Below are positions 10,152 to 31,962 of a stretch of 32,000 bases of DNA, one piece after another. Numbering within the stretch: position 1 is the stretch's first letter; every line of letters begins with the position of its first letter. The position numbers and the translations under genes are program-made. The notes beneath the pieces were generated by a model. That model was not told the origin of the DNA. It saw only the letters and a list, made by a program, of their open reading frames with translations, and did not search any database. The stretch is taken from contig NZ_LT963433.1 in the NCBI RefSeq assembly GCF_900199515.1, positions 120,001 through 152,000 on the forward strand, written 5' to 3'. This DNA comes from Massilicoli timonensis (GTDB lineage Bacteria; Bacillota_I; Bacilli_A; Erysipelotrichales; Erysipelotrichaceae).

Positions 10152-11969
10152 TTACACCCCTTCATTTTGTGTATAGTACACGATGCCTGTCAGCACATAC
10201 ACCACATTGGGCAGTGCCACGCCGTTGCCCCACATCTTATACTCCGCCGAGTCGGAATGAGGATTCTGCAGCCACTTGAAGATTTGTTTCCGTGTCTTTG
10301 GTTTGCTTGATGTTCCCACAATCTTACGATGTGTTTCAAAGATTTCTGCCCACCGTGTGAGTTCCTCTTCAGAAGGAAGTTTCTCACCAAGGTCAGCGCA
10401 CCACCAATCTGGAAATCCCTGGAGCCTTGCACACTCCGTAGGGGTAAGTCTGCGGACAATGTATTCCAGATCCGAATCTGTGTCATTGACAAGCGGAGGA
10501 TCTTTGTAATCCGTAGCTACTAAAGTGTTGGCAAGTTCCTCTTCCGCAGAAGTAAAGAACGATGCCTTACTGCTTGAGTAGGTGGGAACGGCAACCGCAT
10601 CGGGTCCCGTGGCTTTCAGTGTAGAATTGATGCCCTCATCACTGATTCCCATATTCCTTGCGAAGTTCTGACCGCAGTTATAACTTTCACGGTCGATAGC
10701 GTAAACAACGGCGTGACGGTCTACGGTGTTTAGGGTGTACATGACATCACTTTCCGCATAACCGTTGCCGTGGTGGGAAGGACGGGAGCCGTTGCCTTCC
10801 ACGATGGCAATGCCGCCCTGGTTGCAGGTGGGGTTACCACCGTTCCCATCAAGGGTACGGGAGGTATCTGCTTTATAAAAACCGCTGTTGGGGTTTGCCG
10901 ATTTCATGGCATTGCTGTCCTTGGAGCAGACACCAAAAGCGGTCGGCTCTACCACAAACGGCTGATTGTTTCCGCCTGTGCCGTAAGTAGCCGCCACGGT
11001 CTGTGCAACATCAAGGGGGCCCACATAGCGGGTATCCTGGGAGTGATTTTCATAAACCGTTGCAGGAACGACTCCCGCTCGGAGCGTCGGAGATTTTTCC
11101 TCCTCATAACCGATGCCACGGCTATCAGCAGAATGTTCCGTACAAAATCCCGCAGACTCCATTACGCAAGGCGGATGGTGTGCCTCGGCTCGGAGAGTGC
11201 AGGTAACATCATCGGTGACATCCATACGGTTACCACCCTGGTCATTTAAGACGATGCCTGTCGCAGGAGTGCTTTCTTCAGAAGTTCCGGCAGTTCTTTT
11301 CCACGGGCATCGGCTCGCCTCAAGATTCCCAAACAGGCCTTCTGACTCAAATAATATTTTTCCGGCACACCCACCATTAAAATCTGCGACAAGATAGATA
11401 CGTCTTCTTCTCTGGGGAACTCCCCAATACTGCGCGTCAACGCATCTCCATGCGATACTGAAACCGTCTCCCAACAGTTCTCCTGCTCCTGTCCATTTTC
11501 CTTTTGGAGGACAAGGCACAGCATAGTCGCCTTTGACGGATGCGACTGCTTCGAGGACTGCTTTGAAATCCTCTCCTGCGTTTGAGGAGAAGGCGCCGGG
11601 GACATTTTCCCACACGATGTATCTTGGATACTCACCATTGGTTTTACACCTCATTTCTTTTACGATTCGGATTGCTTCGTAGAACAGGCAGGAGCGTTCT
11701 CCATCAAGACCACTGCGTTTTCCCGCCACACTCATATCCTGGCAGGGAGAACCGAAAGTGATGATATCCACGGGGTCAATCTCCGCACCGCTTATGGTGG
11801 AGATGTCACCGAGGTGTTTCATCTGCGGAATACGCTTGCTTGTTACACGAATAGGAAAAGGCTCAACTTCCGATGCCCACAAAGGGGTAATACCGGAAAT
11901 CAAGCCTCCCAGAGGAAATCCCCCGGAGCCGTCAAAGAGGCTGCCGAGGGTCATAGGTTTTTTATTCAT
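10152..11969 (-). CDS. DNA (cytosine-5)-methyltransferase with a very large variable region
   Basis: Motif I LFDGSGGF, IV GSPCQDMS, VI WENVPG, VIII QRRRRIYLV, then about 300 aa, then TPTECARLQGFP and GNGVALP. ATG at 11969 with SD GAAGGAGGT, overlapping the upstream stop (ATGAATAA). Confidence 0.92.
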   Translation of the reverse strand: MNKKPMTLGSLFDGSGGFPLGGLISGITPLWASEVEPFPIRVTSKRIPQMKHLGDISTISGAEIDPVDIITFGSPCQDMSVAGKRSGLDGERSCLFYEAIRIVKEMRCKTNGEYPRYIVWENVPGAFSSNAGEDFKAVLEAVASVKGDYAVPCPPKGKWTGAGELLGDGFSIAWRCVDAQYWGVPQRRRRIYLVADFNGGCAGKILFESEGLFGNLEASRCPWKRTAGTSEESTPATGIVLNDQGGNRMDVTDDVTCTLRAEAHHPPCVMESAGFCTEHSADSRGIGYEEEKSPTLRAGVVPATVYENHSQDTRYVGPLDVAQTVAATYGTGGNNQPFVVEPTAFGVCSKDSNAMKSANPNSGFYKADTSRTLDGNGGNPTCNQGGIAIVEGNGSRPSHHGNGYAESDVMYTLNTVDRHAVVYAIDRESYNCGQNFARNMGISDEGINSTLKATGPDAVAVPTYSSSKASFFTSAEEELANTLVATDYKDPPLVNDTDSDLEYIVRRLTPTECARLQGFPDWWCADLGEKLPSEEELTRWAEIFETHRKIVGTSSKPKTRKQIFKWLQNPHSDSAEYKMWGNGVALPNVVYVLTGIVYYTQNEGV

Positions 11970-13227
11970 CTGCACCAACCTCCTTCACAAGGTCGGCATA
12001 CGGTATCTGCACACCGTTACGGATAACAAAGACACCGTCTGCATCACCTGTATCTTCCACATATCTGCGGAGGATGACCGATGCGTACTTTTCATCCAGT
12101 TCCATCGTATGGCAGATGCGATTGGTTCTTTCACAAGCCATCAGCGTAGAACCACTGCCACCAAAGGTGTCGACCACGATGGAATTCTCACGGCTTGAGT
12201 TTCCAATCGGGTAGGCAAGCAGGTCAAGTGGCTTGGAAGTCGGATGGTTTTTATTTTTCTTCGGCTTATCGAAGTTCCAGATGGTGGTCTGACTTCTGCC
12301 TGCGTTTTTGCTCCAGTAGTGCTTGCCGTTCTGAAGGAAACCGTAAAGCACGGGTTCGTGCTGCCACTGATAATCACTTCTGCCAAGCACCAGGGAGTTT
12401 TTCACCCAAATGCAGCAGCCGGAAAGATGAAAGCCTGCATCGATAAATGCCTTACGGAAATTCAAGCCTTCCGTATCAGCATGGAACACATAGGCAGCAC
12501 CGCCTTTTTCCAGGTGGGCAGCCATATTCTGAAATGCCGAAAGCAGAAATTCATAAAACTTCTCGCTTGCCATCTTATCGTTTTTGATGGACAGACCATC
12601 GGAACTTTCAAAGGCTACATTATATGGAGGGTCGGTCAGCACAAGGTTGGCTTTCTTACCATCCATAAGTGTTGCAACGTCATCGGGATTTGTGGCATCA
12701 CCGCACATCAGTCTGTGTCTGCCTACCGTCCACACATCACCACGTTCCACAAAGGCAGCCTTTTCCAAGGCATCGCTTAAATCAAAATCGTCCTCTTCCA
12801 CATCAGACTTATCATCTCCTGTAAAGAGGTCTGCGATTTCATCATCGTCAAAGCCTGCCAGGCCGATATCAAAATCCATGCCCTGCAAGGACTCGATTTC
12901 GATTTTTAACATCTCCTCGTCCCATCCTGCATCAAGCACCATACGGTTGTCTGCAAGGATGTAGGCTTTCTTCTGTGCCTCGGTAAGGTAGTCCACAAAA
13001 ACACAAGGCACCTCATCGATGCCTTCTTCCTTGGCAGCCATCACACGGCCGTGTCCGGCAATGATACCGTAATCCTTATCAATAATGACGGGATTGATAA
13101 AGCCGAACTCACGGAGCGAAGAACGGAGTTTCATAATCTGCTCCGGAGAATGGGTGCGGGCATTATTTACATACGGCACTAATTTTGTAATGGAAACGAG
13201 TTCCATCTGCGTTGTTGTTCTTCCCAT
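11962..13227 (-). CDS. ParB-like N-terminal domain fused to an N6-adenine/N4-cytosine DNA methyltransferase (DPPY type)
   Basis: LVPYVNNARTHSPEQIMKLRSSLREFGFINPVII...GHGR is ParB/Srx-like. LVLTDPPYNV followed by VVDTFGGSGST gives beta-class motif order. ATG at 13227 with SD TAAGGAGGG. Confidence 0.9.
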   Translation of the reverse strand: MGRTTTQMELVSITKLVPYVNNARTHSPEQIMKLRSSLREFGFINPVIIDKDYGIIAGHGRVMAAKEEGIDEVPCVFVDYLTEAQKKAYILADNRMVLDAGWDEEMLKIEIESLQGMDFDIGLAGFDDDEIADLFTGDDKSDVEEDDFDLSDALEKAAFVERGDVWTVGRHRLMCGDATNPDDVATLMDGKKANLVLTDPPYNVAFESSDGLSIKNDKMASEKFYEFLLSAFQNMAAHLEKGGAAYVFHADTEGLNFRKAFIDAGFHLSGCCIWVKNSLVLGRSDYQWQHEPVLYGFLQNGKHYWSKNAGRSQTTIWNFDKPKKNKNHPTSKPLDLLAYPIGNSSRENSIVVDTFGGSGSTLMACERTNRICHTMELDEKYASVILRRYVEDTGDADGVFVIRNGVQIPYADLVKEVGADE

Positions 13228-13237
13228 AGCACCCTCC

Positions 13238-14020
13238 TTAATACAGACCCCATTCAGCGAACTTTTCAAAACCGCCGAGGCTGTGAATGTACTGACGGGC
13301 AATGTCTACGATTTCCGCATAAGGCTTACCATCAATGGTGTCATCTCCGATGGCACAGCAAAGCTGCACAGGCTCTTTGATTTTCTGTGCCTTAAGGAAC
13401 GCATAGATATTTACAGACACATCCGCCTTGGATAAGTCCTTACCGTGCAGACCGCCACCTGTAACGGAATCAGCCATATCCGAACCGAGTTTACGGTTGG
13501 TAGCACCTGTATCTACATTGGTGCCGCCAGTCCAATCACCGAGAGGATTTACCTCTGTAAGAGGACACTTGATACGAAGAATGTCGGTCGGAGCATTACT
13601 CTGACAAACAATAAATCTGTTTCCGTCTGCGATGTATTTCCCGTCATACGGATACTCCTCATAAATTTCACGAGCCATTCTGGAAAGGTTCTTCTGCTCG
13701 GGTGTTAAAGGCATACCCTTAAAGATCCCGTTATCTCCGCAACGCACACCGTCCTTCTGATTATCCGACAGGTGCTTATCCTGGGGAACGATAACGATGT
13801 CCGTATCCATCACGCCTGCGATACGATGCACGGCGTTTATAATTTCTGCTCTGTCCAAATCTGCTGTGGTTTCAATAATGGCATGGCACACACCATGGCC
13901 GATTAAAACCTCCACAGCAATCTTCGGATTTTCTTCTTTTGCATAAGCCAGATCCACAATGGCTCCTGCGATTCTGTCTGCCACCTTGTCCGGATGGCTC
14001 GGATTTACTTTTTCAATCAT
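13238..14020 (-). CDS. Compact S-adenosylmethionine synthetase (MetK-like), 260 aa
   Basis: By-eye alignment to E. coli MetK: SHPDKVADRIAGAIVD vs GHPDKIADQISDAVLD; CGDNG vs GAGDQG; VDTGATNRK vs GDCGLTGRK; GGGLHGKDLSKADVS vs GGGAFSGKDPSKVDRS. About one third shorter than bacterial MetK. Confidence 0.8.
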   Translation of the reverse strand: MIEKVNPSHPDKVADRIAGAIVDLAYAKEENPKIAVEVLIGHGVCHAIIETTADLDRAEIINAVHRIAGVMDTDIVIVPQDKHLSDNQKDGVRCGDNGIFKGMPLTPEQKNLSRMAREIYEEYPYDGKYIADGNRFIVCQSNAPTDILRIKCPLTEVNPLGDWTGGTNVDTGATNRKLGSDMADSVTGGGLHGKDLSKADVSVNIYAFLKAQKIKEPVQLCCAIGDDTIDGKPYAEIVDIARQYIHSLGGFEKFAEWGLY

Positions 14021-15197: not shown

Positions 15198-15623
15198 TTA
15201 TATTTTGATGGGGTTTTCCGGCATCACCACATGGTTAAGGGCACTGTTATGCCAACGGTACACCGTGGTTCTGTCGGCGTGGAGTTCATCCCCAATCTGC
15301 TCCCAGGTAAGGTTATGGATATAACGGTAACGCAGAACCATACGCTCATCGGTATTGGAAACCTCATCAATAACAGTGCGTATCTGCTTTTTCAGTTCCA
15401 CAAGGTTGTCGATTTCTGCGTTTATTTTATCTTCCAGTTCCATAATCTTAAAAACGCTGCGTACAAAAGGTGCATCCGTATTTCTTGAAGTCTGCACACG
15501 CTCCTCCCATGTGGGAGAAGAAATGCTACTCGACATTTCCCTCAATTTCCCAAGTTCCTCAATATCCGAGTTGATTCTTTGGTCAAGTCGGTATGCCTGT
15601 CCTAAATATTCTTTAACTTTCAC
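15198..15623 (-). CDS. Late transcriptional regulator, ArpU/RinA/DUF1492-like (sigma-70 region-4-like HTH)
   Basis: C-terminal ERMVLRYRYIHNLTWEQIGDELHADRTTVYRWHNSAL is region-4-like. Sits directly upstream of HNH-terS, as Firmicutes phage late activators do. GTG start in a GTGA overlap, with SD GGAGGTGG. Confidence 0.7.
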   Translation of the reverse strand: MKVKEYLGQAYRLDQRINSDIEELGKLREMSSSISSPTWEERVQTSRNTDAPFVRSVFKIMELEDKINAEIDNLVELKKQIRTVIDEVSNTDERMVLRYRYIHNLTWEQIGDELHADRTTVYRWHNSALNHVVMPENPIKI

Positions 15624-25662: not shown

Positions 25663-26151
25663 TCAAATTTTCTTTTTCAGCGTTGCATAAATCTTAGTGA
25701 GCCTGTTGCGGATAGCCGCCTCAGAAACGCCTTCTTCTGCTGCAATATCCACATTGGTCATGTTGCGATAGAACTTCTTAACCACGGTATCCTTCTGCTT
25801 GTCCGTCAGTTCCGAAAGAGCCACCTTCAACTTTTCAATCTGAAGAGAACGCTCTTCGTTTGCGATAGAGTTCAGAATCTGCTGCAAAGGATTGTAAGTA
25901 TCATCCTCAAGATACGGGTTGCGGTCATCCGCATCGTCGCCGTCCCCATCGTGGTAGCCTTCATAATGAACTGGACAGTGATATGCCTCTCTACGGTCGG
26001 CATCCAGTTCATCATCGTCCATACCATGAAGCTGTGAGATGATGGTTGCATTTTCTCCGTTTTCGCCGGGAGTGATGGTATAGCTTGTACCATCGTTGAA
26101 GTAATAAATGTAATTTGTACGGTTGTCTTCCGCTGTTTTGAACTTTCTCAT
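25663..26151 (-). CDS. Protein with a sigma-70 region-4-like HTH only, plus an acidic N-terminal region (first phage gene)
   Basis: C-terminal LSELTDKQKDTVVKKFYRNMTNVDIAAEEGVSEAAIRNRLTKIYATLKK is region-4-like. I see no region-2-like segment. The N-terminal half is Asp-rich (HDGDGDDADD). Confidence 0.7.
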   Translation of the reverse strand: MRKFKTAEDNRTNYIYYFNDGTSYTITPGENGENATIISQLHGMDDDELDADRREAYHCPVHYEGYHDGDGDDADDRNPYLEDDTYNPLQQILNSIANEERSLQIEKLKVALSELTDKQKDTVVKKFYRNMTNVDIAAEEGVSEAAIRNRLTKIYATLKKKI

Positions 26152-26156
26152 TTAAA

Positions 26157-26199
26157 GTCCCTGCCTTTCTTTTACGCCCGATTGGGTGGCGGCAGGGAC
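26157..26199 (-). promoter_or_regulatory. Hairpin sequestering the SD of the sigma-like gene
   Basis: GUCCCUGCC-(25 nt)-GGCAGGGAC. The 3' arm carries the only SD-like purines (AGGCAGGGA) and ends 5 nt before the ATG at 26151. Confidence 0.5.
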
Positions 26200-26200
26200 A

Positions 26201-26235
26201 CAAAAAGAGCCGATGTGATGGTACACACCGACTCT
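26201..26235 (-). terminator. Intrinsic terminator inside the early leader
   Basis: AGAGUCGGUGUG-UACCAU-CACAUCGGCUCU forms 12 bp with two G.U pairs (C.A on plus), followed by UUUUG. Confidence 0.65.
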
Positions 26236-26397
26236 GATACCGAAAATGGGTATGACAAAGTACGGTGGGTACATCTGCGGTCAGTCCACGGCTATACCGT
26301 GAAATTGACTCTTGATGTATCCCGCCGCCTTAAGGTCGACCACTTCGGGCATTGGAATATTTTTTCTGACAATCTCCTTGTGTTGATTGTCATAGAC

Positions 26398-26443
26398 ATT
26401 ATAATTCTTTAAAATTTTTCATGACCAACTCGGTGAGTTGGTC
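26398..26443 (-). promoter_or_regulatory. Candidate early promoter (TATAAT) with an overlapping perfect 21-bp palindromic operator
   Basis: Minus-strand TATAAT = plus 26398-26403. Palindrome GACCAACTC-GGT-GAGTTGGTC at 26423-26443. A weak -35-like TTGGTC/TGGTCA lies inside its proximal arm, 18-19 nt from the -10. Confidence 0.5.
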
Positions 26444-26484: not shown

Positions 26485-26509
26485 AAAAAAAGGACCCCTT
26501 TCGGGGTCC
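26485..26509 (-). terminator. Rho-independent terminator of the hsdR operon
   Basis: Minus strand GGACCCC-GAAA-GGGGUCC followed by UUUUUUU, 28 nt after the stop of the 530-aa gene. Confidence 0.88.
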
Positions 26510-26511
26510 AA

Positions 26512-26532
26512 AACCAACTCAGTGAGTTATCA
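26512..26532. repeat. Degenerate second copy of the operator-like palindrome
   Basis: AACCAACTCAGTGAGTTATCA matches 16 of 21 positions of the 26423-26443 palindrome, offset by 89 bp. Confidence 0.5.
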
Positions 26533-26536
26533 AAAT

Positions 26537-28129
26537 TTATTCATTATCTTTTATTGTACTTCCTAATTCATCAACGCCTGCTCTTTTACAGATGCTATTG
26601 AAATCCTGTACGGAAATACCAGGCATATTCTCCATAATGCGAATATAGGTTTTATCTGGGTCATGGTAATAGTCCAGCTTATTCTTTGACTTTTCAAAAA
26701 TCTTTTCTGTAATACGAAGACTTAATTTCATACCAACACATATAGCCATAAGGACATCCGTACCCATATTGTTGTATTTATCGTTTTTTATCTTTCCGTG
26801 ATAATTTTTATGCAGTCCTGTTCTATCATTGAACACTTCCGGGTAATTCCATTTTCTGTTTTCCATCAAATACCACAGACATTGGCATAGCGTACTCGTC
26901 GGGTCGCCCAATCTTTTCATCAGTTCTATTTCTTCAGCTTCATCATAAACAGAAATATAATCATGAAACGCATCGTAAGCCTCGTCGGGTTCGTATGCAA
27001 AATTAGCCTGATATTTCGGATGAAATGTTAATATTCGTTGGTCTATCCCTTCCACACGATGCAGAACGGAAAAACCAATCAAGTCTTTCGATACATTTCG
27101 GTATTCAGTGTACTTATACTCTCGGATATTAATAGCACATTGAGCCAGCTTTTTCTTTGCTTTTGCTGTTAAATGGAGTTCGCCTTCTTTTAATAGAACA
27201 TACTGCTTCTCAGCAAGGACAAAATAGCCATCTGCATATACGAAACGGCCTCCATCTACCCACTCTCTTAATGATGAGTCTGCGGATAGAAGTTGATAGG
27301 CTTCAAGCGGCGTTAATGCCACCAGTTCCTTGCTTCCTGTTATTTCCGCAAATACTGCATCAAAATCATCAAAAATTCGGAGTTTATCAAGCAAACCAAC
27401 CTCAATCAAACGGTACTTGACCGAAACACGAGATACAATAAAAAATGTACTCAAATCCTCAATAAGGATATCGCAGGATGGAAATATATCGTTTTGTGGG
27501 TCGTTATAACTGGCTATTAACTCCAGTGCCTTCTGTTTGAACATTTCAAAAGGCATCAACACTCTTGGAGCCAATCTATGTGCCTGCCACTCCAACCACT
27601 TTACCTCATTTTCTTTTGTCTTTTTTCCTTCTGGAGGCTCAAAGAATGTTTCAGACTGTCGGCACATAATTGGATACAGTTTTTCTGATGCGGCAGCATT
27701 TTTCAATGCCAAAATTTCAAAATACATCTTATCCTTTTCCCAATGTAGTGCCTCGTGTATAAGAGTATTTCGTTTTGCGCCCTCACCGTAAACCGCCTCA
27801 GAGGCAGGGTCAATCAATATTGTCCCCGCAGGAAAGTGAACGGGCTGAGATGTGCCATTATCGGCATCATATACATCAACCTCTCCATCTAAAAGCAAGC
27901 AACATCCAAATATATCGAGATTTCTCGAAAGTGAAACTTCTTTGACTGTAAGTTGTGCTTCTGCGAGAATCTTCTCAACGGGAAGTGGCATCGGAGACAG
28001 AAGAGCCTCTTTGCAATGCTTAGTCAGATATTTAGTTGCATAATCATCCAGGCGATTCTTGCCAAGAATCAAGGCTCCTGTTTTTTTATTGATATCATAG
28101 ATATCGCTCGATGTCAGCTTCTTCGTCAT
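26537..28129 (-). CDS. ImmA/IrrE-like HExxH metallopeptidase domain protein with an unknown middle region and an XRE-like C-terminal HTH (~530 aa)
   Basis: TLIHEALHWEKD plus EWQAHRLAPRVLMPFEMF fits the ImmA/IrrE pattern HExxH...E..AN.FA..LLMP. C-terminal FNDRTGLHKNYHGKIKNDKYNNMGTDVLMAICVGMKLSL fits an XRE helix-turn-helix pattern. ATG at 28129 with SD AAAGGAGAA; the ORF-track start at 28162 is a TTG. Confidence 0.7.
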   Translation of the reverse strand: MTKKLTSSDIYDINKKTGALILGKNRLDDYATKYLTKHCKEALLSPMPLPVEKILAEAQLTVKEVSLSRNLDIFGCCLLLDGEVDVYDADNGTSQPVHFPAGTILIDPASEAVYGEGAKRNTLIHEALHWEKDKMYFEILALKNAAASEKLYPIMCRQSETFFEPPEGKKTKENEVKWLEWQAHRLAPRVLMPFEMFKQKALELIASYNDPQNDIFPSCDILIEDLSTFFIVSRVSVKYRLIEVGLLDKLRIFDDFDAVFAEITGSKELVALTPLEAYQLLSADSSLREWVDGGRFVYADGYFVLAEKQYVLLKEGELHLTAKAKKKLAQCAINIREYKYTEYRNVSKDLIGFSVLHRVEGIDQRILTFHPKYQANFAYEPDEAYDAFHDYISVYDEAEEIELMKRLGDPTSTLCQCLWYLMENRKWNYPEVFNDRTGLHKNYHGKIKNDKYNNMGTDVLMAICVGMKLSLRITEKIFEKSKNKLDYYHDPDKTYIRIMENMPGISVQDFNSICKRAGVDELGSTIKDNE

Positions 28130-28859
28130 CAATATCGGATTCTCCTTTTTCCATGTAATCAAGAGGCATAGTAGCTAACAATTTCTTTGCTTCACGCCAT
28201 GTCGGATAATACTGCTCTACTAAAGCATGGAACCTATGTGTGTGGTTTTTCTCTAACAAATGCACTAATTCGTGAACAACCACATATTCAAGACACTCCA
28301 CAGGTTTCTTTGCAAGCTGCAAATTAATCCAAATCCTGCGCTTGTCAATATTACACGTGCCCCAGCGAGTTCTCATATTCTTGATACGAACTTCACTCGC
28401 ATAGACTTCCATTTTCTTTTCGCAACTTGCTACAACGGTATCCAGGACACGGCTCAATTCCTGTCTATACCACTCAATAAATAATTTCTCTTTTGCATCC
28501 GTTGATGTACCTTCTGGCACAGTCATTACTATTTTGGTTGGCGTTTTTACAATTTTCTGTTGCTTGCCCTCATAGATGACCTGCAAACGGTATGGTTTAC
28601 CCCACAAGTAATGGGACTCACCGGACACATATTCTCTTTTGCTCTGACGCTCCTGCGCCAACATTCTGTCACGAACCTTAGTAATCTCCGGCAATTTCTT
28701 CAGGACAAATAATTTTATATCTTCATCCTTCAGTTCCAGAGGAGAACTAACAGTCACATTGCCTTCTGGCGGGTTGACTCTGATATACAGATTTTTTAGA
28801 TTGCTCTTTCTGATAATTTCAACAGTCAACCCACCGATTTCCATTTCTTCTTTACGCAT
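28095..28859 (-). CDS. YgjP-like (DUF45, M48-type) metallopeptidase
   Basis: VVHELVHLLEKNHTHRF is the YgjP-type HExxHxxxxNH signature. The ATG at 28859 overlaps the hsdR stop (ATGCGTAA). The ORF-track N-terminal extension to 28961 lies inside hsdR and is rejected. Confidence 0.8.
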   Translation of the reverse strand: MRKEEMEIGGLTVEIIRKSNLKNLYIRVNPPEGNVTVSSPLELKDEDIKLFVLKKLPEITKVRDRMLAQERQSKREYVSGESHYLWGKPYRLQVIYEGKQQKIVKTPTKIVMTVPEGTSTDAKEKLFIEWYRQELSRVLDTVVASCEKKMEVYASEVRIKNMRTRWGTCNIDKRRIWINLQLAKKPVECLEYVVVHELVHLLEKNHTHRFHALVEQYYPTWREAKKLLATMPLDYMEKGESDIDDEEADIERYL

Positions 28860-31800
28860 CGTATTCTTCCTGCCTTTGTGCAATATCGAAGACATTATTG
28901 GTTTCTTCGGTCGCCTTGTCTTCGCTATAGCTATGAAGCAATAATTTTTTATAAATAGCAAGTCTTATACGCTGCTGTTTTTGAAAGTTTCTCTTCCATT
29001 CCGGTTGAATCGATACTCGGATTGCTCCATCAACATCAATCGTCAATTCAACATTCTGCTCAAAATAGTCATACAACGCACGTCTTGCGGCGCTATCCTT
29101 AATCTCATCAGGATAGCTACCACTGGTTTCTGGATGGAGAATGGCTTCCGCCAATTCAACAACCTGTCTGAGATATTCTTCATAACTCATAGCTTCAATT
29201 TTTCGCTGCATGATGATTTTCTTCAGCATCTCAGACAACTTTCCATAGTACACACTATTGGAACTCATCTTCTTAACAATTTCATGCTGTATGTTGTTGT
29301 CGATTGTCTCAGCTTTTGCCTCGTTGTCACCAGGCAGGTCTTTAACCAGATCCGCTGGAGTTGTCGTTTTCCCTTGTAAGAGAAGTTCAACAAGAGACAT
29401 ATTTCCAAGTTCGCTCACCACTTTTGTGTCTTCGGCACGGATGTAGGTGTCCAAAATATAGCGCATATCAGCCTCATATGGCTTGAGGTCAATATAATCG
29501 CAGCTTGCCAACTTAATCATTTCTTTGATTTTGTTATAGCCGGATATTTCACCACGCAGGTGATTTACATCCTCTTCGGTATAACCATAATCAGCAACCA
29601 ATCTGTCGCAGCAGTTGGCAAAGGAACGAGAAAGAGCCGCCGTCAATGCATACAGTGTGTCTCTTCTTGCAGTTTTCTCATCACTTTCGCTGTCATCACC
29701 GCAGAAATATTCAATGTAGTCGGTATCTGCCTGTGGCATAGGAACATTCTCAATCAACGCCTCAAGGGAAGTGAGTGTTCCTTCCAACTCAGATTTTGCT
29801 TCATCGTAGCGATTTTTAATGAGCCCCTCGACATCTTCTTTATCGTAGCCATCGAAGGCCTCGGTTGTGTAATCTGCAACCGCCAGCTGCACATTACGGA
29901 ATAAGTCCATATAATCCACGATATATCCATAATCCTTGTCCTCGCCATCCGGTCTGTTAACACGGCAGATAGCCTGGAACAAGTCATGGTCACGCATGGA
30001 TTTATCAATATAAAGATAGGTTGCGCTCGGAGCGTCAAAGCCAGTCAGCAGTTTATCAACCACAATTAGCAGTTTCATCTGCGCCGGCTCGTGTTTGAAG
30101 CGTTCCTTGGCCTCCTTTTCAAACTCAGCGAGTTTCTTTCCGCCGAGCATACGCTCATAGATTGCTTTTTTATACTCGTCTTCGCTTGCCTGATTAGGGT
30201 CGGTCGTTGCCGTTCTGACACTCTGTGTGGTAGGTTCATAAGAAGTAACAACAGCACACTTGGTAAATCCCATGCTCATGAAGATTTCCCAATAGCGGCA
30301 AGCCTCATAAATACTGTTTGCCACAAGCATAGCTGTGCCACGGTCTTCCTTAAGTCTCGGCTTAAGGCTCATATCAAAAACGATATCGGATGCAATTTTC
30401 TCCAGACGCTGCTTGGAACTATACAGTTTATTGATAGAAGTCCAACTCTGCTTTAATTGGAGTTTTGCACGTTCAGTCAATCCATGTGTTTTGTTTTCAA
30501 ACCACAAATCGACTTTATCCTGGCTGGACAAATCCTGATCTACATCCCTCGCTTCATAACGAAGGTCAAGAACCACGCCGTCCTCTACGCCTTCATCGAA
30601 TTTATAAGTATGGATGTATGTACCGAATGTTTCCAGGCTCGTCTGCTTGTCCGTTTTCAAAAGAGGAGTACCCGTAAAACCAATCAGAACGGCGTTAGGC
30701 ATCAGCGCTTTTACAGCCTCATGCAATTTGCCGGAATTGGTACGGTGACACTCATCGATGAATGCCACGATATTGCCCTTTGCACAGAAATCCTTCGGCA
30801 GGTCCTTCAGCAATTCTTTTCTGTACTGGTCGATATCAGACTGATTTCCTGCGTTATGTCCATATTTGTGAATCAACGAACACACAATAGCATCCTCATT
30901 CTTATCCAAAATGGAACGCAGGTCAGCACAGCTTTTTGCTCTGCGAACCTTTTCGTCTACATCAATGAAAAGGCTTTCAATTTGGTCATCCAGTTCATCA
31001 CGGTCCGTAATAATAACAACACGGCTGTCTGTGACATTTTCAATAATCCACTTGGTAAGCCAAACCATAATCAGCGATTTACCGGAACCTTGGGTGTTCC
31101 AGATGATACCGCCTTCTTTATCTTGGATTCGCTTACGGGCAGCAATATTAGCAAAATACTGATTGTGTCTTGTTACCTTCTTGATGCCTGCATCATATAT
31201 CACAAAATCGTGGATAAGAGACAAGAAGCGTTCCTTATGGCAAATGGAAATTACGCCATCTCTCAAACGGTTAACTTCTTTGACCTGTAACAATTTCACA
31301 GCAGCAGATAAATCGTCGGTTGCTTTTTTGTCCTCTTTCCATTTCAGATAATACTTTTCAGGCGTATCGGTTGTACCATAGAAAAGACCTTCTGCTTCAT
31401 TGCCCGCAAACAGAAACTGTGCCGTACTGAAGAAATTCAGAATGTTTTCACGCTTCTGATTCTGCAACATCTGACGGATGCCTTTTCCGGCACTGACATA
31501 AGAACTCTTCAATTCAAATACGCCGAGTGCGATACCGTTAATATACAGTACAACATCGGGACGTTTTCTCGTCACCTTATCAAAACGCAGAACAGACACT
31601 TCTTCCGCAACATAGAAATCGTTGCTGTCGGTATCGTCCCAATTTATATAGTGTACTGTCTGGCGACGTCCATGCTCATCCTTCGCTCCCTGTCGTCCGT
31701 AACGGAGCAGGGAATATACACCTCGGTTAATTTGATAAAGCGTATCGACCTGGTTATTTACCTTGCTCAAGAGTTCACTGATAGCAGTTTTGATCTGGTC

Positions 31801-31962
31801 ATCACTGTACCCACGCTTTTTCAGATTAGCTTTCAGCAAATCTTCCTTAACGGGTGTGTTATCGATATCTTCAAGGTTTCCAAGATAAGTATAACCAAGG
31901 TCATCAACCAACCAATGCAGGACTCTTTTTTGTAATTTTTTCTCCGCATCTACAGTTGCCAT
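28852..31962 (-). CDS. hsdR: Type I restriction enzyme, R subunit
   Basis: N-terminal PD-(D/E)xK RPDVVLYINGIALGVFELK, Walker A NTQGSGKS, DEAH-like FIDECHR, 1036 aa. SD AAGGAGG before the ATG at 31962. Confidence 0.93.
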   Translation of the reverse strand: MATVDAEKKLQKRVLHWLVDDLGYTYLGNLEDIDNTPVKEDLLKANLKKRGYSDDQIKTAISELLSKVNNQVDTLYQINRGVYSLLRYGRQGAKDEHGRRQTVHYINWDDTDSNDFYVAEEVSVLRFDKVTRKRPDVVLYINGIALGVFELKSSYVSAGKGIRQMLQNQKRENILNFFSTAQFLFAGNEAEGLFYGTTDTPEKYYLKWKEDKKATDDLSAAVKLLQVKEVNRLRDGVISICHKERFLSLIHDFVIYDAGIKKVTRHNQYFANIAARKRIQDKEGGIIWNTQGSGKSLIMVWLTKWIIENVTDSRVVIITDRDELDDQIESLFIDVDEKVRRAKSCADLRSILDKNEDAIVCSLIHKYGHNAGNQSDIDQYRKELLKDLPKDFCAKGNIVAFIDECHRTNSGKLHEAVKALMPNAVLIGFTGTPLLKTDKQTSLETFGTYIHTYKFDEGVEDGVVLDLRYEARDVDQDLSSQDKVDLWFENKTHGLTERAKLQLKQSWTSINKLYSSKQRLEKIASDIVFDMSLKPRLKEDRGTAMLVANSIYEACRYWEIFMSMGFTKCAVVTSYEPTTQSVRTATTDPNQASEDEYKKAIYERMLGGKKLAEFEKEAKERFKHEPAQMKLLIVVDKLLTGFDAPSATYLYIDKSMRDHDLFQAICRVNRPDGEDKDYGYIVDYMDLFRNVQLAVADYTTEAFDGYDKEDVEGLIKNRYDEAKSELEGTLTSLEALIENVPMPQADTDYIEYFCGDDSESDEKTARRDTLYALTAALSRSFANCCDRLVADYGYTEEDVNHLRGEISGYNKIKEMIKLASCDYIDLKPYEADMRYILDTYIRAEDTKVVSELGNMSLVELLLQGKTTTPADLVKDLPGDNEAKAETIDNNIQHEIVKKMSSNSVYYGKLSEMLKKIIMQRKIEAMSYEEYLRQVVELAEAILHPETSGSYPDEIKDSAARRALYDYFEQNVELTIDVDGAIRVSIQPEWKRNFQKQQRIRLAIYKKLLLHSYSEDKATEETNNVFDIAQRQEEYDA

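Follow-up and report, generated by a model that had tools for sequence, protein, structure and literature searches.

A single-chain peptidase and helix-turn-helix protein that probably controls the neighbouring promoter of a prophage in Massilicoli timonensis

The stretch of DNA analysed here, hereafter the window, comprises 32,000 nucleotides (nt) of Massilicoli timonensis (contig NZ_LT963433.1, positions 120,001 to 152,000 of the forward strand), and every long open reading frame (ORF) in it sits on the minus strand. Judged by its gene content the window is a temperate siphovirus-type prophage. Our subject is the gene at 26537-28129, the fusion gene, which encodes a 530-residue protein built, from N- to C-terminus, of an M78-type peptidase domain, a middle domain, a flexible linker, an XRE-type helix-turn-helix (HTH) domain and a short helical tail. 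Just beyond its 3' end lie two palindromes and a putative promoter for the first of the presumed lytic genes, and the conserved arrangement of these sites suggests that the fusion gene probably controls that promoter. The parts of the gene are as follows.

26537-28129, minus strand: the fusion gene, with ATG at 28129 and TAA at 26537-26539; 530 amino acids (aa)
27395-27997, minus strand: ImmA/IrrE-like zinc-peptidase domain, residues ~45-245 (invariant columns, Foldseek, PF06114 in homologues)
27020-27382, minus strand: middle alpha/beta domain, residues ~250-370 (AlphaFold2 secondary structure)
26897-27019, minus strand: linker, residues 371-411 (poorly conserved columns in an alignment of 27 homologues; low predicted local distance difference test (pLDDT) scores)
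26690-26896, minus strand: XRE-type five-helix HTH, residues 412-480 (HTH_26, PDB profile matches, domain model and Foldseek)
26540-26689, minus strand: C-terminal two-helix extension, residues 481-530 (helices 91-100 and 106-115 of the domain model, with high pLDDT)

The N-terminal part of the protein, as modelled, adopts an IrrE-like fold. When the whole-protein AlphaFold2 model (built with an alignment; mean pLDDT 82.9, predicted template modelling score 0.75) was compared with the PDB by Foldseek, the top match was IrrE (3DTI; probability 1.00, E 5e-3), followed by PrpR of Mycobacterium tuberculosis (6CYY). The catalytic residues HExxH...E that characterise the ImmA/IrrE family (Peptidase_M78, COG2856) are intact in the protein. 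HEALH occupies residues 125-129 (window 27743-27757), and EWQAHRLAPRVLMP, residues 180-193 (window 27551-27592), holds the downstream glutamate together with an LLMP-type block. Ten of these positions (H125, E126, H129, W130, E180, W181, R189, L191, M192 and P193) are invariant in 27 homologues whose identity falls as low as 22%. The Pfam search proposed in an earlier note on this DNA came out in two parts: the homologues pass for both Peptidase_M78 and the HTH, but the protein itself stays below threshold, with 17.7 bits for Peptidase_M78 and 21.7 bits for HTH_26 against a cut-off of 22 in each case. Peptidase_M78 (PF06114) passes in the Streptococcus suis and Ruminococcus-phage homologues, at 32.5 and 27.0 bits, and precomputed PF06114 matches are present in several close relatives.

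At the other end of the chain, the last ~90 residues had been taken for an XRE HTH. An HTH is indeed present, but it spans residues 412-480 only; the 50 residues after it form a helical tail, possibly a dimerisation element. The HTH_26 match covers residues 418-464; a 66%-identical homologue reaches 22.5 bits for HTH_26, and the S. suis homologue 28.0 bits for HTH_3 (cut-off 23). A profile search of PDB sequences gave weak matches in the HTH region only, none for the peptidase or the middle domain. The C-terminal region of the family profile matched the CapH N-terminal domain, C.BclI, HipB and HigA (E 0.06-0.8), and all PDB matches there were XRE proteins apart from a single unrelated one (2FIC). 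Structure modelling, which the earlier note had called for, shows the C-terminus as a five-helix XRE-type HTH. Modelled separately, residues 402-530 (pLDDT 89.3) form a five-helix bundle, with helices at 13-23, 29-36, 41-47, 56-65 and 70-79 in the numbering of that model, and two further helices. The Foldseek matches listed for this domain model were mostly XRE-family HTH proteins, among them SinR, DdrO, C.BclI, C.AhdI, CapH and P22 C2, with template modelling scores on the target of 0.6-0.77 and a root-mean-square deviation of ~2 Å over 62-69 residues; SinR, C.AhdI, DdrO and NHTF superpose at 1.8-2.3 Å over 62-68 residues. Since the individual Foldseek E-values are weak, the assignment of the modelled C-terminal domain to the XRE type relies on the agreement of these several lines. 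Its putative recognition helix, LHKNYHGKIKN, is near-constant across the loci of the 530-aa clade.

With an intact zinc site, an IrrE-like fold and an XRE-type fold in one ORF, the fused peptidase-HTH chain proposed from the sequence was borne out. No solved structure or annotated family spans the whole 530-aa protein. PHROG 4031, a family of unknown function, matches it with E 2e-63; an NCBIfam search gave zero matches, and a PADLOC search that included Rosmer-type models (RmrA) gave a single weak match, MkoB, E 0.021. Some 170 residues, including the middle domain, separate the peptidase from the HTH, with the linker in addition. The middle domain had no Pfam, PDB-sequence or Foldseek match. 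In the linker the mean pLDDT of ten-residue blocks falls to 54-69 around residues 371-400, and to <50 at residues 380-384; residues 371-411 are a candidate cleavage region.

Downstream of the stop codon, reading along the minus strand, a proximal palindrome (P1) is followed by an intrinsic terminator, a spacer of ~40 nt, a distal palindrome (P2) and a -10 box, TATAAT. These features, and the leader and gene that come after them, are listed here.

26512-26532, no strand: proximal palindrome P1, core AACTCAGTGAGTT, minus-strand reading AACTCACTGAGTT; between the stop codon and the terminator
26485-26509, minus strand: intrinsic terminator of the operon that ends with the fusion gene (hsd-ygjP-fusion gene), GGACCCCGAAAGGGGTCC then T7; conserved in a 35-locus alignment
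26423-26443, no strand: distal palindrome P2, GACCAACTC-NNN-GAGTTGGTC; overlaps the -35 of the next promoter
26398-26427, minus strand: sigma-70-type promoter-like site, TGGTCA, 18-nt spacer, TATAAT; 10/12 matches
26152-26391, minus strand: structured leader of ~240 nt, conserved, with an internal terminator-like hairpin at 26206-26235
25663-26151, minus strand: σ70-region-4-like early gene, 162 aa (Pfam Sigma70_r4_2 and Sigma70_r4; NCBIfam and PHROG sigma-factor matches)

P2 had been described as a perfect 21-bp palindrome; it actually consists of 9-bp arms around a 3-nt non-symmetric centre, GACCAACTC-GGT-GAGTTGGTC (centre ACC on the minus strand). Its distance from the gene end, put at ~95 bp, is 94 bp, and its proposed overlap with a putative promoter holds, the -35 element TGGTCA lying inside the proximal arm. 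A second site at 26512-26532, also suggested earlier, is P1 with its core AACTCAGTGAGTT. The shared motif AACTCNGTGAGTT occurs five times in the window at ≤1 mismatch, against 0.11 occurrences expected. Both sites are 7-3-7 palindromes whose half-sites are spaced by one helical turn, as would be expected if a dimeric HTH bound them.

A link between the gene and the palindromes had been offered as inference only, and comparison of related loci now lends it support. We took 80 loci from species-representative genomes and searched them by tblastn with the window's proteins; 68 of these loci form the 530-aa clade (47-98% protein identity). A search for AACT-N5-AGTT with ≤1 mismatch in the 57 non-identical loci of this clade found both sites after the stop codon in 52, with a spacing of 87-89 bp in 43 of these, against a background of 0.28 matches per 400 nt in the rest of the loci's sequence. 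The arms are conserved and the centres variable, with 19 and 24 distinct central 5-mers at the two sites, and in most loci a -10 box lies at a constant distance from P2. Covariation between helix and operator was sought across the clade, where both are too constant to inform except in two loci from Eggerthellaceae metagenome-assembled genomes (MAGs; L070 and L086). These have an altered helix, LHTNYCGNIRN, and are the sole two loci without such a site; downstream of the homologue they show no inverted repeat, terminator or leader, despite a full hsdMSR-ygjP-homologue operon. The possibility that the palindromes are a Type I recognition site was ruled out, as HsdS identity ranges over 28-88% while the arms are constant. 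Nor was the motif found upstream of hsdM, where it was sought as an autoregulatory site.

The leader that begins just after the promoter-like site is also conserved in structure. RNAalifold, applied to an alignment of 21 loci (A3), gave 29 pairs, 19 of them with compensatory changes. A long-range helix formed by AAGGCGGCGGGAUAC with GUGUCCCUGCCGCC encloses the terminator-like hairpin at 26206-26235, and in the folding model a competing local helix and a hairpin near the start codon are possible. The leader resembles an attenuator, a riboswitch or an antitermination leader; neither it nor the palindrome region matches any Rfam family. The 162-aa protein encoded after it contains σ70 region 4 only, and its gene is the presumed regulated target of the promoter at P2. 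Although tblastn alone found this gene in few loci, being defeated by its divergence, an iterated hidden Markov model (HMM) search recovered most, placing a σ-like gene 350-400 nt after the fusion gene in 43 of the 68 clade loci; a σ-like gene likewise follows the homologues of the streptococcal clade and of a Ruminococcus phage.

A few loci lack this continuation. In Bacillus sp. ISL-45 (L076/L010) and in L029 the fusion gene and P1/P2 are kept, along with the initial 100-140 nt of the leader, and are joined directly to a holin gene, in L076/L010 with lysin and serine-recombinase genes beyond; the restriction operon is retained in all of these, and L075 has a holin-like match downstream. The junctions in L076/L010 and L029 are as expected for internal deletions of a prophage with the inferred order restriction operon, fusion gene, σ-like gene, replication, packaging, lysis, recombinase. 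From this gene content, L076/L010, L029 and L075 are probably prophage remnants that keep the restriction system and the regulator.

Upstream, the fusion gene has a context that the earlier note overlooked. ORFs, Pfam and tblastn show it to be the 3'-terminal, overlapping gene of an hsdM-hsdS-hsdR-ygjP operon, of which hsdM and hsdS lie past the end of the window.

28852-31962, minus strand: hsdR, Type I restriction subunit, 1036 aa (ORF; HSDR_N, ResIII, SWI2_SNF2 and T1R_D3 domains in related loci)
28095-28859, minus strand: ygjP-like (M48/SprT-like) metallopeptidase gene (Pfam PF01863, E 2e-60)

The start of ygjP that gives a 254-aa product is inferred from locus L001. This is a Type I operon with an M48/YgjP gene, its co-directional, overlapping genes following hsdR: ygjP overlaps the start of the fusion gene by 35 nt and the stop of hsdR by 8 nt. 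By tblastn, ygjP lies directly upstream of the fusion gene in 68 of 68 clade loci, hsdR is 67-99% identical in 66 loci, and hsdM-hsdS-hsdR precede ygjP and the fusion gene at fixed spacing in 66 of the 67 loci with sequence there. Hosts of the order hsdR, ygjP, fusion gene include Lachnospiraceae, Oscillospiraceae, Bacillaceae, Megasphaera, Erysipelothrix, Gemella, Acholeplasma and Eggerthellaceae. An association of M48/YgjP genes with the downstream side of hsdR is known but unexplained (PMC12255303). The head of the operon is often a 66-aa HTH_17 gene. In L001 host genes adjoin this gene, and the left arm of the L001 prophage is therefore without another XRE repressor. The HsdM of L001 (2279-4963 of that locus, the same operon type, outside the window) has ~895 aa; Pfam covers the first ~450 residues, and the C-terminal ~440 aa are an extension beyond the Pfam domains. 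In Alkalibacterium indicireducens (L041), the sole such locus, ygjP, the fusion gene and P1/P2 are present and tblastn found no hsdM, hsdS or hsdR in 9 kb upstream.

The remainder of the window carries genes for a capsid protein, a ClpP-like protease, a portal protein, the large terminase, an HNH protein, two DNA methylases, an SNF2 helicase, a VRR-NUC protein, a VapE primase, a family-A DNA polymerase, an Enc34-type single-stranded DNA (ssDNA)-binding protein and a DUF2800 protein. The assignment to a Heliusvirales type is made because the terminase, portal, capsid, VapE primase, family-A polymerase and DUF2800 genes are all present; among annotated phage records the closest, at 66% protein identity, is assigned to Candidatus (Ca.) Heliusvirales, and loci with 98% protein identity occur in Neglectibacter sp. 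X58 and in a Ca. Fimenecus MAG. A second small σ70-region-4 protein (DUF1492 and Sigma70_r4) is encoded at 15198-15623 on the minus strand, just before the HNH and terminase genes, and by its position may be a late-gene activator, which would give a two-step σ-like cascade. At 10152-14020, also on the minus strand, the genes for a 608-aa C5-cytosine methylase, a fusion of ParB_N with an N6/N4 methylase, and a 260-aa protein are clustered, the last having only the N-terminal domain of S-adenosylmethionine synthetase. Heliusvirales phages carry methyltransferases and methionine-related auxiliary genes (PMC11283538).

Beyond the 530-aa clade the family comprises 1,085 clusters at 50% identity (E ≤ 1e-3), most members having 620-640 aa and an extra N-terminal domain of ~135 aa. 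Distant homologues (22-29% identity) sit at the junction between variable cargo and the replication module, with the following upstream of them.

L006: methyltransferase and LlaJI-like restriction genes, then a 272-aa HTH_26 protein
L007: methyltransferase with McrB-like and McrC genes
L084 and L087: a small XRE gene, with divergently transcribed Type IIG or Type III-like genes behind it
S. suis phages: a divergent XRE gene, or optrA/cat resistance cargo
Streptococcus agalactiae: host DNA

From such gene content, seen in L005, L006, L007, L084 and L087, the region upstream of the family appears to be a cargo hot-spot; examples of what occupies the site in one phage or another are Type I, LlaJI-like, McrBC-like, Type IIG and Type III-like restriction systems and optrA/cat resistance genes with IS1216. 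In one S. suis phage (L003) a perfect 8-6-8 palindrome, GTACCATT-N6-AATGGTAC, occupies 2766-2787, within the spacer that separates the 628-aa homologue from the σ-like gene, and a TATACT box comes directly after it. The S. suis recognition helix differs from that of the 530-aa clade. TATACT is a possible -10 box and the palindrome, by its placement, may be an equivalent operator for a different helix.

Taken together, these observations are most readily explained, with a probability of about 0.5 in our judgement, if the fusion protein is a regulator of a Heliusvirales-type temperate phage, namely a repressor whose predicted HTH acts through the operators on the promoter of the σ-like gene and which is inactivated by its own peptidase. 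The hsdMSR-ygjP-fusion gene operon would be expressed in the lysogen; repression in the lysogen is suggested because the fusion gene shares its operon with the restriction cargo. An HTH dimer would bind both 7-3-7 palindromes, P1 and P2, and so keep the promoter of the σ-like gene, and hence the lytic cascade, shut. By analogy with ImmA/ImmR, IrrE/DdrO and CapP/CapH, the peptidase would inactivate the repressor upon a damage-type signal: when DNA damage, ssDNA or a similar inducing signal arises, as with ImmA, IrrE and CapP, the peptidase domain would cut the fusion protein in cis or in trans, probably within the linker that joins the middle domain to the HTH, and cleavage would lift repression.

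Several points weigh against this explanation. The protein's own Pfam scores lie just under the curated cut-offs, and the E-values of single Foldseek matches to the HTH are weak (0.25-2.8). The family is found in 48 of 50,697 phage records, and hence is not a universal Heliusvirales gene. The loci compared belong to one phage lineage, so that co-inheritance of gene, sites and σ-like gene reflects shared descent in part and does not amount to 50 independent cases. A search of the streptococcal loci for the two-site layout turned up just a terminator and, close to the next putative promoter, a single palindrome of another sequence, which is suggestive at most. The palindromes could instead be bound by the σ-like protein itself or by the HTH_17 protein encoded at the operon's head, and the strict hsdR-ygjP linkage of the 530-aa clade leaves room for a restriction-related role. 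Finally, a promoter scan would place the centre of P2 near -42 from the start site, a position that suits a repressor and a class II activator alike.

This last point bears on a rather unlikely alternative in which the fusion protein is an inducer or activator: its HTH would tether a protease that cleaves a separate repressor, or a dimer at about -42 would, on a signal, activate a promoter whose -35 is poor (4/6), as class II activators do. The conserved catalytic residues are in keeping with this, and in distant clades the homologue is the first gene towards the replication module, with a small XRE gene divergent upstream in the classical cI position (L003, L084). Such a divergent XRE gene thus does exist beside distant homologues, but no separate small XRE repressor gene, as in the two-gene ImmR/ImmA arrangement, was found next to the fusion gene in the window or in close loci. 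An operon shared with cargo that is expected to be active in lysogeny would be odd for a constitutive activator, and two operators flanking a terminator, one of them over the -35, are a typical repressor layout. The fixed order hsdR, ygjP, fusion gene with overlapping codons in 66 of 67 loci, together with the variable tblastn matches downstream of the fusion gene, had at first led us to read the gene as part of a restriction cassette, an accessory that acts with the YgjP-like peptidase in HsdR proteolysis or restriction alleviation on entering an unmodified host, in operon regulation or in anti-restriction sensing, the palindromes and phage promoter being mere neighbours. Distant homologues also adjoin other restriction systems, M48/YgjP genes are known after hsdR (PMC12255303), and ArdC contains an IrrE-like metalloprotease domain (PMC7213743). 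This reading became a rival because of the HMM result for the σ-like gene and the distant clades without Type I genes, and we now consider it improbable. The streptococcal clade, the most abundant branch (one member's sequence occurs in >7000 collection blocks), has no adjoining restriction genes; the palindrome was not found upstream of hsdM; and PADLOC returned only the weak MkoB match. The restriction systems that adjoin members of the family are of five unrelated types and lie in two orientations, and some members have none, which is why we favour a regulator of the phage backbone beside a cargo hot-spot. The upstream restriction genes are thus best read as cargo at that site rather than as functional partners of the fusion protein. 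Very improbable, finally, is a stand-alone toxin-antitoxin or abortive-infection module of the Xre-COG2856 kind serving as a prophage defence gene. Such fusions are predicted to be toxin-antitoxin-like and are abundant in phages (PMC3632139), and the gene adjoins defence cargo; yet PADLOC, Rosmer-type models included, gave no significant match, a partner toxin or antitoxin gene is absent, and the gene's position, like the operator-promoter-σ arrangement, is conserved along with the phage backbone.

If the fusion protein is the repressor that we favour, one chain could combine the master repressor with its own inducing protease, and we put forward, tentatively and with some doubt, a self-cleaving lysogeny switch of gut and streptococcal prophages that is welded transcriptionally to the carried restriction system. 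Host defence and lysogeny maintenance would then share one operon for their expression, and induction would end both at once. Phage databases list PHROG 4031 as of unknown function, and the Heliusvirales paper makes no mention of a repressor, ImmA or an integrase (PMC11283538); the present analysis names a candidate regulator, two candidate operators, a promoter and a first regulated gene. The candidate lysogeny switch of a widespread prophage lineage is thereby directly testable, and would show how a one-chain equivalent of ImmR/ImmA works. The repeated occurrence of restriction and resistance cargo directly upstream marks a hot-spot, and expression of the cargo may be tied to lysogeny.

The premise of the earlier note that protease and HTH are separate proteins in known systems is contradicted by reported fusions (PMC3632139; 10.1101/2022.04.27.489752; PMC6765138). 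An Xre HTH fused to a COG2856 protease has been described as frequent, and as abundant in phages, by Makarova et al. (PMC3632139), who predicted a toxin-antitoxin-like role. The fusion protein has the same two domains as these modules, but it belongs to the PHROG 4031 family with extra domains of its own and a fixed place in the phage genome. With ImmR/ImmA of ICEBs1 and phi105-type elements it shares the pairing of an XRE HTH with a COG2856/M78 zinc protease, the placement at a mobile element's control region and the conserved HExxH...E site; unlike that two-protein system it is one chain, with the protease before the HTH and ~170 extra residues and a linker between them, and its gene closes a restriction operon at the 3' side instead of adjoining an integrase gene. 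The likeness to DdrO/IrrE of Deinococcus is structural, IrrE 3DTI being the best N-terminal match and the DdrO DNA-binding domain among the best C-terminal ones, but IrrE cleaves a separate repressor, whereas here the HTH is in the same chain. The IrrE structure paper reportedly describes IrrE with an HTH-like motif and a GAF-like domain. A counterpart of the GAF-like domain was confirmed for PrpR (PMC6765138), an HTH plus IrrE-like transcription factor in which the HTH is N-terminal, HExxH is lost, and coenzyme A and a 4Fe-4S cluster are bound. PrpR/RamB of Mycobacterium (6CYY) thus likewise joins an HTH and an IrrE-like domain in one polypeptide; in contrast, the HTH of the fusion protein is C-terminal, its zinc site is intact and Foldseek found no GAF-like match in it.

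Systems associated with defence and restriction offer further parallels. Like CapH/CapP, the fusion protein combines an HTH and an M78 protease beside defence operons, and the N-terminal domain of CapH (7T5U) is its best PDB profile match (E 0.06) as well as a fold match. CapH-CapP fusions accompany some cyclic oligonucleotide-based antiphage signalling systems (CBASS) and defence island systems associated with restriction-modification (DISARM), some capH/capP systems encode a σ70-family factor, and capH/capP lie upstream of, and divergent from, the operon that they control (Lau et al., bioRxiv 10.1101/2022.04.27.489752). Here, by contrast, the gene is the last of a co-directional series, the putative operators face the next transcription unit, and the motif is absent upstream of hsdM. 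ArdC, an anti-restriction protein, has a metalloprotease domain structurally similar to IrrE (PMC7213743). The C proteins of restriction-modification systems (C.BclI, C.AhdI, C.Esp1396I) resemble the C-terminal domain in their small XRE fold, and they too lie beside restriction genes; they differ in being ~80 aa long, upstream of the restriction gene and free of a protease, while the fusion gene has no operator at the hsd promoter. Fusions of an Xre HTH with COG2856 are as such already known. What is particular to the protein described here is its reversed domain order, the middle domain, the preserved catalytic residues, the location of its gene at the 3' end of a cargo operon, and the unit of operator, terminator, operator and promoter that follows it.

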